Part shown: positions 13,704 to 62,705 of the stretch, one piece after another
Numbering within the stretch: position 1 is the stretch's first letter
Layout of the letters: each line of letters starts with the position of its first letter
Sequence record: PX880099.1
Length of the DNA: 64,000 nucleotides
From: a phage
Reading direction: 5' to 3' (one strand)
The notes under the pieces: model-generated
Databases searched by the model: none
What the model saw: only the letters and a program-made list of their open reading frames with translations
What the model was told of the DNA's origin: nothing
Position numbers and translations under genes: made by a program

Positions 13704-13732
13704 TTGACAGAAGGATCTGTCTTTGTCATAAT
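13704..13732 (+). promoter_or_regulatory. sigma70-like promoter (TTGACA-17-CATAAT)
   Basis: TTGACA 13704-13709; CATAAT 13727-13732. Confidence 0.5.
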
Positions 13733-19118: not shown

Positions 19119-19147
19119 TTGACAAACTCACAAAACTTGTGTTACAT
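19119..19147 (+). promoter_or_regulatory. sigma70-like promoter (TTGACA-17-TTACAT)
   Basis: TTGACA 19119-19124; TTACAT 19142-19147; in AT-rich gap 18830-19185. Confidence 0.5.
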
Positions 19148-58217: not shown

Positions 58218-58470
58218 TCTAGCCTCCTAAACGCGTCTCTGACGCACTTTTTATATATAAGATGATAAATCACCTTACCTCATAAGTAAACTTGCTCCAC
58301 GAGCCTCTTATGAAGCTTACGTCATAGGTTATACTATTGCTACCTATTTAAGCAAGTTTTTGCACACAGAAAATAATTTTTAATAAAACTCTTGACTTTT
58401 GTGTTCGAAGTATGCTACCCTAGAAATCTATTAACGAGCGCAGCGAGTTAAGGTTTTAGGTTGTTGATGT

Positions 58471-58697: not shown

Positions 58698-58883
58698 ATG
58701 ATTAGTGAGAATCCGTGCAAATGGCATCATGTGCCTATTAAAGATTGTATGTCTTGTAATCCACGTTCTATTTATAACATTGCATCTTATGACGATGACA
58801 ATGTGTTAGACGATGATGAAGGCTGGGAGGATTTAGATTGGACTGGTTATGAAACCAAAAAGGATAAAATTATTCCTAGTTGA
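58698..58883 (+). CDS. hypothetical Cys-containing acidic protein (61 aa)
   Basis: SD GGAGGTGTGCAATG. Confidence 0.5.
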   Translation: MISENPCKWHHVPIKDCMSCNPRSIYNIASYDDDNVLDDDEGWEDLDWTGYETKKDKIIPS

Positions 58884-58920
58884 CTTAAGATATCCTTCGT
58901 GCTAAACTAGAAGTGAGGAG

Positions 58921-59172
58921 ATGCCGATCACTCCCCATTTGGGGTTCGAAGGATATATGCAAAATAGCTTTTATTTTAGGTGCCGTGCTTGTAATAGGCA
59001 TTTGACAAACCACTCCAGACGTGATAAAAATGGAGTCATCAAGGAATCAGACCTCTGTTCTATTTGCACAGGTTTGGCTTTTGATGATAGTCCCGAAAGG
59101 GTTTATCAGCATCAATGTATAACAGACGTTCTCGTGTCAAACTTGGTAGAGGACGAACAACTAACAGATTAG
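58921..59172 (+). CDS. zinc-finger protein (83 aa)
   Basis: CRACNRH...CSICTG; SD GAGGAGATG. Confidence 0.5.
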   Translation: MPITPHLGFEGYMQNSFYFRCRACNRHLTNHSRRDKNGVIKESDLCSICTGLAFDDSPERVYQHQCITDVLVSNLVEDEQLTD

Positions 59173-59180
59173 GAGGAACA

Positions 59181-59429
59181 ATGTCTCTATTAGAAAAACA
59201 CGTGTTTGAAGATGGTAACGGCAATGCAGTTTTTCTTTTCCATCCAGAAAAATACACATCTGAAAACAATGGTACAACTTCTATTGTAATCACTAAAGAT
59301 GTTAAAGTTATTGATTTCTTGGCTCTGATGCGAGAGATGGATCTTGAAATTAATACTTTTAACGCAGAAGCTTTGGTTGTTGCTCTTCTGGAAAAGAAAG
59401 ATAGTGAAGAAGTAGCAGAATATGCTTAA
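59181..59429 (+). CDS. hypothetical protein (82 aa)
   Basis: ATG 59181 after SD AGGAGG. Confidence 0.5.
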   Translation: MSLLEKHVFEDGNGNAVFLFHPEKYTSENNGTTSIVITKDVKVIDFLALMREMDLEINTFNAEALVVALLEKKDSEEVAEYA

Positions 59430-59436
59430 ATAACTA

Positions 59437-59466
59437 TTGACAAACGTATCCTTCATATGTTAGGAT
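59437..59466 (+). promoter_or_regulatory. promoter, tRNA-cluster type (TTGACA-N11-ATGTTAGGAT)
   Basis: TTGACA 59437-59442; shares ATGTTAG(R) downstream element with promoters at 60025 and 61189. Confidence 0.5.
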
Positions 59467-59479
59467 ACGTTCATCAAGT

Positions 59480-59670
59480 GTGGTAACAGGGTCGTTGACT
59501 TTTGTTAAGAGGGGCTTGCACTGCGGATAGTGTTAGAGACTACTTCTTCAGAGGTTAGCTACCAAAGAGGAAAAGGAATAGTCTCGGCTCAAGAACTTTT
59601 ACGCTGAAAGTTGGGCTTGGTCTTAGAGAATGTAGCGGTTCTCTACAATCGTCAGCGTCTCTGTTACCAC
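59480..59670 (+). ncRNA. candidate structured small RNA / tRNA precursor leader
   Basis: GTGGTAACAG (59480-59489) is the exact reverse complement of CTGTTACCAC (59661-59670); internal stem GAGACTA/TAGTCTC (59536/59579); no ORF; sits between promoter 59437 and tRNA-Met. Confidence 0.35.
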
Positions 59671-59676
59671 ATTTAT

Positions 59677-59751
59677 GGCCCTGTAGCTCAATGGGAGAGC
59701 TGTCGGCTCATAACCGATAGGTAGCTGGATCGAAACCAGCCAGGGCCACCA
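59677..59751 (+). tRNA. tRNA-Met (CAT), elongator type or Ile-lysidine
   Basis: Hand-folded cloverleaf: acceptor GGCCCTG/CAGGGCC, anticodon loop CTCATAA, T-arm GCTGG-ATCGAAA-CCAGC, CCA encoded. Confidence 0.75.
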
Positions 59752-59753
59752 AC

Positions 59754-59828
59754 GTCTTTATGGTGTAATGGATAGCACAGGAGTCTTCTAAACTCTTAGT
59801 CAAGGTTCGATTCCTTGTAAAGACACCA
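59754..59828 (+). tRNA. tRNA-Arg (TCT)
   Basis: Acceptor GTCTTTA/TAAAGAC, anticodon loop CTTCTAA, T-arm CAAGG-TTCGATT-CCTTG, CCA encoded. Confidence 0.75.
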
Positions 59829-60024
59829 GAACATTTTAACATGAATTAGCTCAAGTGATTTGAACCCACTACTGATCATGGTGGCAGAGAATGAGGCAAG
59901 TATGTCAGAAATTATAAACAAAGGCCACGGTTATATTAGAAGACATAAATGCTCGAAGAGCACCGTTCGTGGAGAACGGGGGTTGGTGGAGTCACCATTC
60001 ATGGTAAAATGTTTTAAAAAACTA

Positions 60025-60059
60025 TTGACAACAAACATTATTTTATGTTAGATTATAAG
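60025..60059 (+). promoter_or_regulatory. promoter, tRNA-cluster type (TTGACA-N11-ATGTTAGATT)
   Basis: TTGACA 60025-60030; ATGTTAGAT 60045-60053. Confidence 0.5.
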
Positions 60060-60062
60060 TAT

Positions 60063-60153
60063 GGAAGGGCAAATCGACGTGGCGACGAAAACGGTCTTGA
60101 AAACCGCCGAGCTTGAAAGAGCCTTGGGAGTTCGACTCTCCCTCCTTCCGCCA
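60063..60153 (+). tRNA. tRNA-Ser (TGA), long variable arm, atypical D-arm
   Basis: Acceptor GGAAGGG/TCCTTCC, discriminator G, anticodon arm ACGGT-CTTGAAA-ACCGC like E. coli Ser-UGA, T-arm GGGAG-TTCGACT-CTCCC; D-stem could not be paired by hand. Confidence 0.55.
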
Positions 60154-60158
60154 GATTA

Positions 60159-60244
60159 GGTAGATTGGTGAAATGGTAGCCACAACAGTTTGCTAAACTG
60201 TAGTCGGAAACGGCGTGTAGGTTCGAGTCCTACATCTACCGCCA
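60159..60244 (+). tRNA. tRNA-Ser (GCT), type II
   Basis: Acceptor GGTAGAT/ATCTACC, anticodon loop TTGCTAA, long variable arm, T-arm GTAGG-TTCGAGT-CCTAC. Confidence 0.75.
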
Positions 60245-60415
60245 AGTTATCTTTAATGTAGCTTGTTGCTCTTAGTTGCTTGGTGTAACTTTTTGGAAGG
60301 ATGGCTGCAACCATCTTACTTTAATAGAGTAAACTTTCGGCAGATGGCCCCCACCATCTTACCGATACCTCATAGTCAGTGGTGCGAACACTGGCTATTT
60401 TAAAGATAATTTTAT

Positions 60416-60490
60416 ACATCGTTAGCCAAGCGGTAAGGCACTTGACTTTTAATCAAGGGAGCGAAGGTTCGAATCCTTCACGATGTACCA
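60416..60490 (+). tRNA. tRNA-Lys (TTT)
   Basis: Acceptor ACATCGT/ACGATGT, anticodon arm CTTGA-CTTTTAA-TCAAG, T-arm GAAGG-TTCGAAT-CCTTC. Confidence 0.7.
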
Positions 60491-60495
60491 AACAC

Positions 60496-60582
60496 GTAGG
60501 TATCGCATAGCGGCAATTGCTGGAGACTGTAAATCTCCTGCCCTTCGGGGCTTCGTTGGTTCGAGTCCAACTACCTGCACCA
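60496..60582 (+). tRNA. tRNA-Tyr (GTA), type II
   Basis: Acceptor GTAGGTA/TACCTGC, anticodon arm GGAGA-CTGTAAA-TCTCC, long variable arm, T-arm GTTGG-TTCGAGT-CCAAC. Confidence 0.75.
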
Positions 60583-60589
60583 AATTAAA

Positions 60590-60674
60590 GATGGATTGGC
60601 CTAGTGGTTGGGCGACGGACTGTTAATCCGTGAACGAAAGTTCTAGCAAGGTTCAAATCCTTGATCCATCGCCA
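60590..60674 (+). tRNA. unusual type II tRNA with anticodon GTT (Asn codons) on a Ser/Tyr-like scaffold
   Basis: Perfect acceptor GATGGAT/ATCCATC, discriminator G, 3-bp D-stem GCC/GGC, anticodon arm ACGGA-CTGTTAA-TCCGT, 15-nt extra arm GAACGAAAGTTCTAG, T-arm CAAGG-TTCAAAT-CCTTG. Confidence 0.6.
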
Positions 60675-60753
60675 AATAGTGCTTGTAGAGTTAATAGAAA
60701 CCTCTAGAATTTTCTAGAATTGTAGATATCAAATCCTACCAAGCAAATATTTT

Positions 60754-60828
60754 GCTCCTATCGTATAACGGCTATTACGGTTGCCTTGTAAGCAACTTAT
60801 CAGGGTTCGAGTCCTTGTGGGAGCACCA
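60754..60828 (+). tRNA. tRNA-Thr (TGT)
   Basis: Acceptor GCTCCTA/TGGGAGC, anticodon arm GTTGC-CTTGTAA-GCAAC, T-loop TTCGAGT. Confidence 0.7.
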
Positions 60829-60850
60829 ATTTAACTCTAAAGGAGTGTAT

Positions 60851-61174
60851 GTGACAGAAAAAGAGTTAGAGAAATATTTTAATATCAATGTTTTCGATGG
60901 TTTTGATGATATTGAAGATGTTGAAAGATATTATGAAGTAGAGTTAGATAAGGATAACATTGTAATTCTTTCTGCCACTTATGATTGTGCATATTATGAA
61001 GGTGAATCTCACGTTTATTTCTATGATATGAAAACATCTTTGTTTTATGAAGTACACGCATATCATTGTTCTTGTTATGGCTTAGAAGGTCAGTGGGAAC
61101 CTGAAGAAATAGGTGATTTGAGCTTTACGGTTGCATATCTAAACAGACGTGGTGCATCTACTATTTTAAAATAA
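60851..61174 (+). CDS. hypothetical protein inside tRNA cluster (107 aa, GTG start)
   Basis: SD TAAAGGAG then GTG 60851; track ORF (from TTG 60752) trimmed because it overlaps tRNA-Thr. Confidence 0.5.
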   Translation: MTEKELEKYFNINVFDGFDDIEDVERYYEVELDKDNIVILSATYDCAYYEGESHVYFYDMKTSLFYEVHAYHCSCYGLEGQWEPEEIGDLSFTVAYLNRRGASTILK

Positions 61175-61188
61175 ATATTAAAAGCCTC

Positions 61189-61218
61189 TTGACAAAGGGG
61201 CTAATAATATGTTAGAGT
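61189..61218 (+). promoter_or_regulatory. promoter, tRNA-cluster type (TTGACA-N11-ATGTTAGAGT)
   Basis: TTGACA 61189-61194; ATGTTAGAG 61209-61217. Confidence 0.5.
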
Positions 61219-61229
61219 AATATTGTTAA

Positions 61230-61304
61230 GCGGGTATAGTGTTAATGGTAGCATATGAGGTTTCCACCCTCCAGGTGCAGGTTCAAGTCCTGTTACTCGC
61301 TCCA
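61230..61304 (+). tRNA. tRNA-Gly (TCC)
   Basis: Acceptor GCGGGTA/TACTCGC, discriminator T, anticodon loop TTTCCAC, T-loop TTCAAGT. Confidence 0.7.
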
Positions 61305-61404
61305 AGATTATTTAAATGGAATCGCTAGAGAAAATTTCTCTTTTCGCTCATGGTTTTCTCCTTCAAACTCTAGCGGTTCTTTTTAAGTGATTTTTTAGTT
61401 TTAT

Positions 61405-61479
61405 TGGAGATTAGCCTAGTGGGAAGGCAACGGCCTTTGAAGTCGTGATGACTAGGTTCGATTCCTAGATCTCCAGCCA
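61405..61479 (+). tRNA. tRNA-Gln (TTG)
   Basis: Acceptor TGGAGAT/ATCTCCA (U1-A72 as in E. coli Gln), discriminator G, anticodon loop CTTTGAA, T-arm CTAGG-TTCGATT-CCTAG. Confidence 0.7.
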
Positions 61480-61486
61480 ATATTTA

Positions 61487-61562
61487 CAGTGCGTAGCGCA
61501 GTTGGTAGCGTGGGAGCTTTGGACGCTTCAGGTCGCAGGTTCGAGTCCTGCCGCACTGACCA
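61487..61562 (+). tRNA. tRNA-Pro (TGG)
   Basis: Acceptor CAGTGCG/CGCACTG (C1-G72), anticodon arm GGAGC-TTTGGAC-GCTTC, T-arm GCAGG-TTCGAGT-CCTGC. Confidence 0.75.
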
Positions 61563-61567
61563 AATTT

Positions 61568-61642
61568 GCAGAGATAGCTGAGACGGATTAGTGCTACCCT
61601 GAAAAGGTAGAAAGGATGGATCGTTACCATCTCTCTGCACCA
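61568..61642 (+). tRNA. tRNA-Phe (GAA), non-canonical T-loop
   Basis: Acceptor GCAGAGA/TCTCTGC, anticodon arm CTACC-CTGAAAA-GGTAG, T-arm GATGG-ATCGTTA-CCATC. Confidence 0.6.
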
Positions 61643-61719
61643 AATAACACCATCCAAGGAGTAGACTTGGTTAACTGTCAATAGCACATTGAGGCTTCTT
61701 ACAGTGGTGTACTTATTAT

Positions 61720-61804
61720 GGCTAAGTGGTGGAATGGTATACACGATACGCTTAGAACGTATTGCCCCAAGGGATTGTGAGTTCGAGTCTCACCTTAGCT
61801 ACCA
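61720..61804 (+). tRNA. tRNA-Leu (TAG), type II
   Basis: Acceptor GGCTAAG/CTTAGCT, discriminator A, anticodon arm ATACG-CTTAGAA-CGTAT, long variable arm, T-arm GTGAG-TTCGAGT-CTCAC. Confidence 0.7.
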
Positions 61805-61819
61805 AATTATTAGATGTTT

Positions 61820-61898
61820 CGCGGGATAGAGGAGTCTGGTCGTCCTCGCCAGTTTCATATGCTGGAGATCGTTGGTTCAAATCCAACTCCCGTTACCA
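61820..61898 (+). tRNA. initiator-like tRNA-fMet (CAT)
   Basis: 5' CGCGGGA like E. coli initiator CGCGGGG; 1:72 mismatch (C/U); A11:U24 in D-stem; anticodon loop TTCATAT; T-arm GTTGG-TTCAAAT-CCAAC. Confidence 0.55.
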
Positions 61899-61917
61899 AA
61901 TTTTGCAAGGAGATAAA

Positions 61918-62331
61918 GTGACAGCCAAGAAATCAGCCCAGTTGGGAATGAACGTAAGTACCGCTACGGGCAGGTTAACAAAAGATATAATGTGGCGACT
62001 GATCGTTCAGACAAATCAGAACATGTGCTTTCATTGCGGTAAAGAAATGACGAGAGAAGACTTCTCCATCGAGCACAAAGTTCCTTGGTTGGATAGTGAA
62101 AACCCACAAGACTTATTTTTTGACTTGGACAATATTGCTTTCAGTCACTTATCCTGTAATGTTGCCGCAGCACGTAAGCCGAACAAAGGTATTATTCCTC
62201 ATGGAACATCATCAGGATATGATACTCACAAATGTAGGTGTGATGCATGCAAAGCAGCAAAAGCTGCAAGACGTAAAAAAGAATACACACCAGAAAAGCG
62301 CAGAGCAACTTACGAGCGTACTGGTAAATAG
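61918..62331 (+). CDS. HNH homing-endonuclease-like protein inside tRNA cluster
   Basis: CFHCGKEM...IEHKVPW...NIAFSHLSCN; GTG 61918 after SD AGGAG; track ORF (from 61762) trimmed because it overlaps tRNA genes. Confidence 0.65.
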   Translation: MTAKKSAQLGMNVSTATGRLTKDIMWRLIVQTNQNMCFHCGKEMTREDFSIEHKVPWLDSENPQDLFFDLDNIAFSHLSCNVAAARKPNKGIIPHGTSSGYDTHKCRCDACKAAKAARRKKEYTPEKRRATYERTGK

Positions 62332-62336
62332 ATAAT

Positions 62337-62419
62337 AGCCGGGTAGATTTAAAAGAGTATGGTACTCAATATGGCTCCAAACCATAGATCAGGGGGTTCG
62401 ATTCCTCACCTTGCTGCCA
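62337..62419 (+). tRNA. tRNA-Trp (CCA)-like, irregular (possible pseudo-tRNA)
   Basis: Anticodon arm TATGG-CTCCAAA-CCATA matches E. coli Trp loop; T-arm GGGGG-TTCGATT-CCTCA; acceptor AGCCGGG/CCTTGCT has 1 mismatch; extra nt between acceptor and D-stem. Confidence 0.35.
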
Positions 62420-62424
62420 ATTAT

Positions 62425-62500
62425 TGTGGTATCGTACAGATGGTTAGTACACTCGACCGATAATCGAGAAACAACGGTTCGACTCCGTTTACCACGACCA
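62425..62500 (+). tRNA. tRNA-Ile (GAT), C33 in anticodon loop
   Basis: Acceptor TGTGGTA/TACCACG, D-arm GTAC-AGATGGTTA-GTAC, anticodon arm CTCGA-CCGATAA-TCGAG, T-arm AACGG-TTCGACT-CCGTT. Confidence 0.55.
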
Positions 62501-62614
62501 AACTCCGTGCCAGCGGTGTCTTCGAAGAACAAGCCTAGTTCCTTCTAAGATGGAGGGGTGCGACTCCTTAACGCACAATCATAATAAAGCATTTCAAATT
62601 AACAGTATTTATTG

Positions 62615-62636
62615 GCCTCCTTATTGGAGGCTTTTT
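62615..62636 (+). terminator. rho-independent terminator GCCTCC-TTATTG-GAGGC + TTTTT
   Basis: Hairpin plus T5 immediately after tRNA cluster. Confidence 0.7.
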
Positions 62637-62705
62637 GCTATCTATTGAATAAAACTTGACTTATTATTTTTTATATGTTAAGATAAAGTTTAGGAGGATT
62701 TTATT

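Follow-up and report, generated by a model that had tools for sequence, protein, structure and literature searches.

Three previously unannotated promoters (P1, P2 and P3) that precede tRNA and small-RNA genes in a phage genome are members of a known promoter kind, and most probably they are four-element promoters used by unmodified host sigma-70 RNA polymerase, as judged from their sequence. The window, that is, the whole stretch of phage DNA analyzed (64,000 nucleotides, record PX880099.1), represents a phAPEC8-like myovirus carrying a phi92-like tRNA module. P1, P2 and P3 span positions 59437-59466, 60025-60054 and 61189-61218; the interval that holds them, 59437 to 61218, opens with the P1 -35 element and closes with the P3 -10 element. 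Each combines an A/T-rich UP-like tract, TTGACA, an 18-bp spacer ending in TATGT (a TRTG extended -10) and TAGNNT, an arrangement in which a -10 short of consensus and a spacer of 18 bp may be made up for by the perfect -35 and by contact between TG and sigma region 3.0. The analysis shows their sequence anatomy, enrichment, family context, conservation and placement next to RNA genes; sigma-70 dependence as well as the start sites, strength and timing of the three promoters are what we infer from this reading.

A motif search of the whole window recovered TTGACA-N14-ATGTTAG in three exact copies, all on the plus strand (59437-59463, 60025-60051 and 61189-61215), against a chance expectation of 0.16; three or more copies appeared in none of 100 shuffles, and no further copy was found in the window with one mismatch allowed. 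The motif put forward in the original prediction is real; ATGTTAG by itself is only weakly enriched (19 copies vs 11.5 expected). TTGACA and the 10-mers ATGTTAGGAT, ATGTTAGATT and ATGTTAGAGT are present as described there, and all three sites lie just 5' of RNA genes. The "11-nt spacer" needs correction, since the gap from TTGACA to ATGTTAG is 14 nt and the two hexamers are 18 bp apart, within the 16-19 bp range of sigma-70. Each promoter scored 10/12 in a consensus scan, with TG present and the 18-bp spacer. The -10 hexamers (TAGGAT, TAGATT and TAGAGT) do share the reported departure from TATAAT, to which each is identical at four of six positions; T-12, A-11 and T-7 are present in all of them.

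The conserved heptamer can be parsed almost completely into sigma-70 elements. T-17 A-16 T-15 G-14 T-13 ends the spacer at all three sites in the TRTG form, and TGT stands directly 5' of each -10 hexamer; within ATGTTAG, TG (-15/-14) is the extended -10, TATG matches TRTG, TA corresponds to -12/-11, and only G(-10) is left over. A register in which TATGTT (the hexamer of the lac -10) served as the -10 element would leave a spacer of only 13 bp and was rejected for that reason. Sigma-S, -32, -28 and -E were ruled out on their known consensus sequences, the sites having T and not C at -13 together with a perfect sigma-70 -35. A/T-rich tracts lie 5' of the -35 elements, and the discriminators (ACGTTCA, ATAAGTA and AATATTG) are A/T-rich as well.

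The coordinates of the promoters and of the genes around them are collected in the table. Transcription from each promoter would enter a structured RNA after a very short leader, the gap from promoter to structured RNA being 8-11 nt for the ~196-nt RNA, tRNA-Ser(UGA) and tRNA-Gly. P1 would transcribe the ~196-nt RNA followed by tRNA-Met and tRNA-Arg; P2, tRNA-Ser(UGA), tRNA-Ser(GCU) and the Lys, Tyr, Asn and Thr tRNAs; and P3, tRNA-Gly and the tRNAs after it, the output of each probably adding to read-through from promoters further 5'. The tRNA-Ser(UGA) gene was missed by ARAGORN and gave a weak match to the Rfam tRNA-Sec model (37 bits); it is annotated by tRNAscan-SE in ASO2A and is a widespread phage tRNA-Ser. 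The ASO2A record also places a rho-independent terminator in the matching interval, which is bounded by tRNA-Met and the first protein gene. The sibling promoter beyond the terminator-like hairpin of the window contains TATGTTA as in P1-P3, with A in place of G.

Features of the tRNA region of the window, with coordinates and remarks
Feature	Coordinates	Strand	Remarks
P1 -35 hexamer TTGACA	59437..59442	+	motif and consensus scan; kept in phiWec179/PsgM04F
P1 TATG-T, TRTG/extended -10	59456..59460	+	consensus scan, register check
P1 -10 TAGGAT, 18-bp spacer	59461..59466	+	predicted start near A59473
Inverted repeat/hairpin around whole P1 core	59437..59477	+	arms 59437-59452 and 59462-59477
~196-nt structured RNA, predicted first P1 product	59478..59673	+	ends 4 nt ahead of tRNA-Met
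tRNA-Met(CAU), tRNA-Arg(UCU), 3' of P1	59677..59828	+	ARAGORN, Rfam
P2 -35 TTGACA; UP-like A/T-rich tract AAAATGTTTTAAAAAACTA 5' of it	60025..60030	+	
P2 TATG-T and -10 TAGATT, 18-bp spacer	60044..60054	+	predicted start near A60061
tRNA-Ser(UGA), 91 nt	60063..60153	+	begins 8 nt 3' of P2 -10
P3 -35 TTGACA	61189..61194	+	apex of hairpin 61175-61210
P3 TATG-T and -10 TAGAGT, 18-bp spacer	61208..61218	+	predicted start near G61225
tRNA-Gly(UCC)	61230..61304	+	begins 11 nt 3' of P3 -10
Sibling promoter TTGACT-N15-TGC-TACCCT, 18-bp spacer	58392..58421	+	opens rightward unit
Sibling promoter TTGACT-N14-TGC-TAAACT, 17-bp spacer	58880..58908	+	5' of ORF 58921-59172
Intrinsic-terminator-like hairpin, then T run	62614..62632	+	closes tRNA block
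Sibling promoter TTGACT-N14-(TA)TGT-TAAGAT	62656..62684	+	5' of first post-tRNA protein gene

The architecture of P1-P3 recurs throughout the genomes of this lineage. TTGAC[AT]-N13-15-TGnTAnnnT was found 14 times in the window, where 0.57 sites are expected and 200 simulations yielded four at most, and it occurs 28 times in phAPEC8 and 31 times in Justusliebigvirus alia. Protein-gene promoters belong to this family, and so do two of the three "early" promoters with which P1-P3 had been contrasted. That contrast was overstated: the promoter at 19119 reads TTGACA-N15-TGT-TACATT, likewise with an 18-bp spacer and TGT, and the one at 13704 reads TTGACA-N14-TGT-CATAAT, with TGT present too. With an architecture that is genome-wide and a heptamer made of sigma-70 elements bar one G, the proposal of a distinct temporal class or of a phage-encoded factor finds no support. 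Among the 62 distinct sites of the pooled family, T-17 occurs in 63%, TRTG in 45% and T-13 in 40%, and TATGTTAA and TATGTTAG are equally frequent. ATGTTAG would thus be the generic TRTG-n-TA of this lineage plus a G at -10, which may be a minor strength-tuning or inherited variant rather than a recognition code for another factor. G(-10) is found in 11% of the pooled family, mostly in orthologs of P1-P3.

P2 shows a footprint when relatives are compared. Phapecoctavirus, the phiWec179 lineage and Justusliebigvirus all have TTGACA and (R)TGTTAGATT unaltered but differ at 5 of the 14 positions of the spacer; all 15 core bases, including the whole TAGATT hexamer, are unchanged over the three lineages, and position -16 varies only between A and G, as TRTG predicts. 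The TATG-T and -10 of P3 are identical in Justusliebigvirus (UAB_1, phi92 and alia), and P3 has diverged too little for footprinting. In phiWec179 the P1 ortholog reads TTGT-TAAGAT with a 17-bp spacer; it has kept the -35 and TG and lost the G. Searching IMG/VR for TTGACA-N13-TATGTTAG returned at least 120 single matches in unrelated contigs, which is chance level for 14 specified bases. Scans of the same collection anchored on the downstream RNA genes added a single relative of P1 (L183) and three of P3, and nearly all matches to a 15-mer tRNA-Ser anchor arose by chance. In the distant tRNA-bearing phages BIS47 and phiEa21-4 TGTTAG is absent and the promoters are sigma-70-like.

Several known systems display the same combination of elements. 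The spacers of TGn promoters tend to be 18 bp or longer, and TGn makes up for a weak -10; the conserved -10 bases are T-12, A-11 and T-7, and TRTG is the form that occupies -17 to -14, where -17 and -16 influence output in E. coli with no direct contact known (PMC2613000). E. coli TGn promoters, among them the "-35/TGn" type, have TG one base ahead of TAnnnT, a functional -35, an imperfect -10 and a bias to 18 bp, like P1-P3; P1-P3 differ from them in that each has a perfect TTGACA as its -35 and that the predicted leaders are only ~2-5 nt long. The E. coli tyrT promoter is of the extended -10 type (PMC2613000), and the tRNA operon that it drives is a precedent for the role proposed for P1-P3. 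UP, -35, TGn and -10 elements are combined in the early promoters of T4 (PMC2613000), also a lytic coliphage with four-element promoters, which are read by unmodified host polymerase in T4 and probably here. The phage studied here belongs to another lineage (Stephanstirmvirinae) and has TAGNNT where the -10 of T4 is near-consensus. The TRTG bases (T-17 R-16 T-15 G-14) are also those of the "-16 region" promoters of Bacillus subtilis sigma-A, although the host of the phage with P1-P3 is E. coli and not a Gram-positive bacterium. In the related phage rV5, 33 sigma-70-like promoters were predicted over the whole genome, and an extended -10 was assigned to 11; a "PtRNA" promoter was placed 5' of the tRNA cluster (Kropinski et al., 2013; PMC3606486). 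PtRNA, also a prediction, reads TTGACA-17-TAATAT and differs from P1-P3 in lacking both TG at -15/-14 and TAG.

Two further comparisons concern the discriminator and the hexamer. Host stable-RNA promoters of the rrn and tRNA P1 type have a GC-rich discriminator and a 16-bp spacer, whereas P1-P3 have A/T-rich discriminators and an 18-bp spacer, so that they lack these marks of stringent control. The -10 element of lambda PRM is TAGATT, the same hexamer as in P2, and sigma-70 is therefore able to use it; PRM, with its poor -35, depends on activation by CI, while P2 has a consensus -35 plus TGn.

A common origin could account for the motif without any selection on it. P1-P3 would then be paralogs that spread with tRNA cassettes by duplication or recombination, TATGTTAG being merely inherited; as the sole explanation this is rather unlikely, though it deserves some weight. 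tRNA modules are clearly exchanged: the window is mosaic at a junction near 60159, with Phapecoctavirus sequence on the left and Justusliebigvirus-like sequence on the right, and no database record was found that spans this junction. P1 and P2 have AACTATTGACAA in common, and the non-core identity among P1-P3 (0.40-0.48) lies at the upper end of the range of other family pairs (0.27-0.46), which gives no clear signal of a recent duplication. Their spacers and flanks are essentially unrelated, so any duplication would be old, with only functionally constrained positions surviving. Shared ancestry accounts for how the motif arose and not for what it does, and does not conflict with the sigma-70 reading. 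The P1 and P3 sites also coincide with hairpins, which could be the functional elements themselves (mRNA 3'-end stabilizers, processing sites or terminators), their likeness to promoters being incidental. The upstream ORFs end at 59429 and 61174, and the hairpins begin 8 nt and 1 nt past the respective stop codons. At P1 the 16-nt arms of the inverted repeat are 88% complementary (RNA fold -16.2 kcal/mol, z -4.4). In phiWec179 the fold persists (-17.9, z -5.4), with two substitutions that are compensatory and one that gives G.U; the P3 hairpin is stable as well (-14.4 kcal/mol, z -3.6), but no covariation was seen in it, its outer stem not being maintained in variants. P2 has a promoter of identical type and no hairpin (z +1.25), the P1 and P3 hairpins have no U tracts and drew no terminator call in the scan, and unrelated hairpins cannot account, as a by-product, for three sites that each have a perfect -35, correct spacing, TG and TAnnnT. 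This explanation is extremely unlikely. Promoter and hairpin functions can coexist, and the hairpins overlapping P1 and P3 could serve a further or an alternative function.

It is also very unlikely that P1-P3 form a distinct regulatory or temporal class in which G(-10) in TGTTAG(N)NT is a selected stable-RNA promoter signature read differently from other promoters. Variants of this idea have the sites resisting or requiring a phage sigma-binding or polymerase-modifying factor, or switching by means of the palindrome around P1, and a Srd-like anti-sigma homolog has been reported in rV5 (PMC3606486). Within the window family, the three tRNA-block promoters all have G(-10) and the 11 other members all lack it. 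The tRNA cluster holds two of three TAG-type sites in phAPEC8 and likewise in alia, the reference genomes, and TAGATT of P2 has remained invariant despite its diverged spacer; the restriction of the G and the invariance of TAGATT make some selection on the exact hexamer possible. The conserved inverted repeat around the P1 core could be an operator, although the G.U-compatible change within it is more in keeping with an RNA hairpin than with a symmetric operator. Against a separate class, sigma-70 elements explain every base except the G, and the ATGTTAG type is neither confined to tRNA blocks nor always found at them. The phiWec179 ortholog of P1 retains the promoter and the downstream RNA without the G, and the tRNA-Gly promoter of Phapecoctavirus (TTGACA-18-TATAGT) has neither TG nor G. 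TAG-type promoters stand 5' of protein genes in phiWec179 and PsgM04F (ATGTTAGAGT) and in phAPEC8 (TGATAGGAT), and outside the tRNA cluster in alia (TGTTAGTAT). Other -10 hexamers are in use in BIS47, phiEa21-4 and rV5, more distant phages that have tRNA clusters. That in Stephanstirmvirinae the G(-10) of TGTTAGNNT marks stable-RNA promoters as a result of selection, giving them kinetics or regulation unlike other TGn promoters and with the P1 palindrome as a switch, is improbable; if true, it could for instance let such promoters escape host or phage shut-off.

Reading P1-P3 as host sigma-70 promoters poses no challenge to the present understanding of transcription, and its value is mainly one of annotation in a widespread group of coliphages that are therapeutic candidates. 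The records of phAPEC8, ASO2A, ESCO13, phi92, UAB_1, phiWec179 and PsgM04F carry no annotation of the three promoters; the annotators of phAPEC8 in GenBank predicted other promoters with MEME and PHIRE and did not call these. A literature search found no transcriptomes of Phapecoctavirus, Justusliebigvirus or rV5-like phages. P1-P3 would define how the tRNA/small-RNA block is split into transcription units, each with a strong host-type promoter and almost no leader, which is consistent with host polymerase making the tRNAs without a phage factor, and they would exemplify the promoter grammar of the lineage (UP / -35 / TRTGn / -10).

As a lead, the ~196-nt structured RNA expected from P1 is of greater interest than the three promoters. 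It had no match in Rfam and was found in Phapecoctavirus only. Its predicted fold is stable (MFE -79.3, z -5.6) and comprises 70 consensus pairs, 10 of which show compensatory double changes.

The combination TTGACA-N14-ATGTTAG occurs exactly three times in the window, at 59437, 60025 and 61189, always on the (+) strand, with no further match when one mismatch is allowed; 0.16 matches are expected by chance and three were reached in none of 100 shuffles. These sites (P1, P2 and P3, each preceding RNA genes) are real and non-random, and the signal is the combination of ATGTTAG with a -35 element at fixed distance, as ATGTTAG alone is barely enriched (19 copies vs 11.5 expected). The 10-mers and end coordinates of the original prediction were correct when checked against the sequence, but its 11-nt spacing has to be replaced by 14 nt between TTGACA and ATGTTAG.

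In register, the three sites consist of TTGACA, an 18-bp spacer with TATGT as its last five bases, and the -10 hexamer TAGGAT, TAGATT or TAGAGT. The TG at -15/-14 is an extended -10 element, TATG fits the TRTG form (-17 to -14), and every hexamer retains the three -10 bases that are best conserved in such promoters (PMC2613000), T-12, A-11 and T-7. Spacers of at least 18 bp are more likely in TGn promoters, weak -10 elements are compensated by TGn, the Escherichia coli tRNA promoter tyrT is of the extended -10 type with an essential -35, and in early promoters of T4 the UP, -35, TGn and -10 elements occur together (PMC2613000). The -10 region does deviate from consensus in a shared form, as originally noted; however, given this anatomy, the form has the look of a known host-polymerase promoter type. 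In a consensus scan of 54-64 kb P1-P3 were among the few 10/12 sites, with TG flagged at each, and the A/T-rich tract 5' of each -35, clearest at P2 (AAAATGTTTTAAAAAACTA) and P3, resembles an UP element, a function that would follow from sequence likeness. On these features P1-P3 very probably function as promoters and can be assigned to the known sigma-70 extended -10 (TRTG) kind, of which they would be unannotated members. Their A/T-rich discriminators and 18-bp spacers differ from those of host stringently controlled stable-RNA promoters, and independence of ppGpp/DksA control may reasonably be expected.

Features in and around the tRNA block
Feature	Position	Strand	Remark
Family promoter	58392	+	TGC-TACCCT
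Family promoter	58880	+	TGC-TAAACT
P1, putative promoter	59437-59466	+	
P1 inverted repeat	59437-59452 and 59462-59477	+	16-nt arms around entire core
Structured RNA, ~196 nt	59478-59673	+	between P1 and tRNA-Met, ends 4 nt before tRNA-Met
CAU-anticodon tRNA	59677-59751	+	downstream of P1
Gap structure	59829-60024	+	z -4.1
P2, putative promoter	60025-60054	+	
tRNA-Ser(UGA)	60063-60153	+	tRNAscan-SE annotation in ASO2A
Gap structure	60245-60415	+	z -4.4
Hairpin at P3	61175-61210		-35 at apex; z -3.6
P3, putative promoter	61189-61218	+	
Gap structure	61305-61404	+	z -4.7; T-rich run at its end
Terminator-like hairpin and T run	62614-62632		closes tRNA block
Family promoter	62656	+	TATGT-TAAGAT, before first protein gene past tRNAs

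The sequences also place P1-P3 in a genome-wide promoter family of this phage lineage, TTGAC[AT]-N13-15-TGnTAnnnT, which has 14 sites in the window against 0.57 expected from first-order Markov simulations (maximum 4 in 200), 28 in the phAPEC8 genome (147.7 kb) and 31 in Justusliebigvirus alia. Three further rightward members bracket the tRNA block (58392, 58880 and 62656) and others lie in the early region. The contrast originally drawn with the early promoters is thereby blurred: that at 19119, TTGACA-N15-TGT-TACATT, has the 18-bp spacer and TGT of P1-P3, and that at 13704 reads TGT-CATAAT. In the pooled family of 62 distinct sites T-17 is found in 63%, TRTG in 45% and T-13 in 40%, and TATGTTAA and TATGTTAG are equally frequent.

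The only feature particular to P1-P3 is the G of their -10 hexamers, present in 11% of the pooled family, where five of the seven sites carrying it are P1-P3 or their orthologs. A tie between this G and tRNA or stable-RNA expression would fit its distribution in the window (3/3 tRNA-block promoters vs 0/11 other family sites) and the invariance of the P2 hexamer across three lineages whose spacers vary at 5/14 positions, but it is contradicted by the relatives. The P1 ortholog of the divergent phiWec179/PsgM04F lineage reads TTGT-TAAGAT with a 17-bp spacer and still has the same RNA downstream; the Phapecoctavirus tRNA-Gly promoter is TTGACA-18-TATAGT, with neither TG nor the G; more distant tRNA-bearing phages have other -10 hexamers. 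Conversely, phiWec179 and PsgM04F have ATGTTAGAGT ahead of a protein gene, as phAPEC8 has TGATAGGAT, and the TGTTAGTAT site of alia is not in the tRNA cluster. By this comparison the G is neither required for stable-RNA promoters nor confined to them. Outside the core, P1-P3 are just marginally more alike than other pairs of family members, so recent duplication does not account for the bases they share; these may stem from old paralogy or from mild selection for a particular strength.

The proposed separate temporal class or phage-factor requirement finds no positive support, and orthologs and paralogs speak against it. For phage rV5, 33 sigma-70-like promoters were predicted, 11 with extended -10 regions, together with a 'PtRNA' promoter, in a paper that also raised the possibility of an unmodified host polymerase in that phage (PMC3606486). 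The phAPEC8 record annotates MEME 'host-dependent' and PHIRE promoters, none of them in the tRNA region, and the records of ASO2A, ESCO13, phi92, UAB_1, phiWec179 and PsgM04F have no promoter features in the part of the tRNA region that was examined; a literature search found no transcriptome of relatives.

The inverted repeat at P1 folds at -16.2 kcal/mol (z -4.4) and is retained in phiWec179 (-17.9 kcal/mol, z -5.4), where two of its pairs differ by compensatory double changes and a third has gone from A-U to G-U. One compensatory pair matches the -10 G-to-A with a spacer C-to-T, so the G at P1 is also constrained by pairing. The upstream ORF ends at 59429, and because of the G.U-compatible change the repeat is read preferably as an RNA hairpin, formed in read-through transcripts at the 3' end of that ORF's mRNA; an operator is less likely. 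The P3 hairpin has no covariation support, and folding gave no hairpin at P2.

The -10 elements of P1, P2 and P3 are separated by 11, 8 and 11 nt, respectively, from the ~196-nt RNA (its closing helix), the 91-nt tRNA-Ser(UGA) and tRNA-Gly; assuming the usual -10-to-start distance, transcription would begin near A59473, A60061 and G61225, with leaders of ~2-5 nt. The fold of the ~196-nt RNA is much more stable than those of shuffled sequences (MFE -79.3 kcal/mol, z -5.6), and when three sequence variants are compared, ten of its 70 consensus pairs show compensatory double changes. It gave no match in Rfam and was found only in Phapecoctavirus (71 records). It brings to mind the stable RNAs that phage T4 co-transcribes with its tRNAs. 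The CAU-anticodon tRNA, 'Met' by ARAGORN and tRNA-Ile(CAT) by tRNAscan-SE in ASO2A, may be elongator Met, initiator or lysidine-modified Ile. The tRNA-Ser(UGA) gene is common among phages and was not called by the ARAGORN scan; its sole Rfam score is a sub-threshold tRNA-Sec match (37 bits), a long D-stem-like pairing is seen by eye, and relatives label it tRNA-Ser-TGA, at times pseudogene. The gap structures listed in the table, also between tRNA genes, are closed folds with long terminal helices; they may represent more small RNAs, remnants of tRNAs or modules for processing.

The region matches lytic myoviruses of Escherichia that belong to the subfamily Stephanstirmvirinae. Phapecoctavirus genomes (e.g., phAPEC8, ESCO13, ASO2A) share 99.5-99.8% identity with positions 58700-60160, and Justusliebigvirus genomes (e.g., phi92, UAB_1, alia) share 96-99% with the tRNA block from ~60159 on. 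As the junction is not spanned by any record in the phage collection, the window is taken as a mosaic in which tRNA modules of both genera are joined. Within 58700-62600 the junction falls inside the tRNA block, and the Justusliebigvirus-like right side brings in tRNAs for Lys, Phe and Leu(UAG) as well as an HNH-type ORF.

Two sub-families were also observed. An early-region one carries the conserved box tAyCACrTAGGGCGG directly after the promoter (window 257 and 1563; phAPEC8 240, 1273, 1752, 3167 and 143958, all (+)), most members having TTGACA and, after a spacer of 16 bp that includes TGn, a -10; at 1563 the box is kept, but the spacer is 17 bp long and lacks TG. The box appears to be the 'PHIRE' motif annotated in phAPEC8, and if any promoters here form a class of their own, this sub-family is a better candidate than those of the tRNAs. 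The other, also conserved, TTGAC[AT]-N14/15-TG[CG]-TACCCT with CGAGCG conserved ~10-18 nt downstream, occurs at 58392 (+) and 18984 (-) in the window, 134550 (-) in phAPEC8, and 72834 (-) and 140224 (+) in alia; the 18984 copy is directed against the + strand genes around it and may therefore give rise to an antisense or small RNA.
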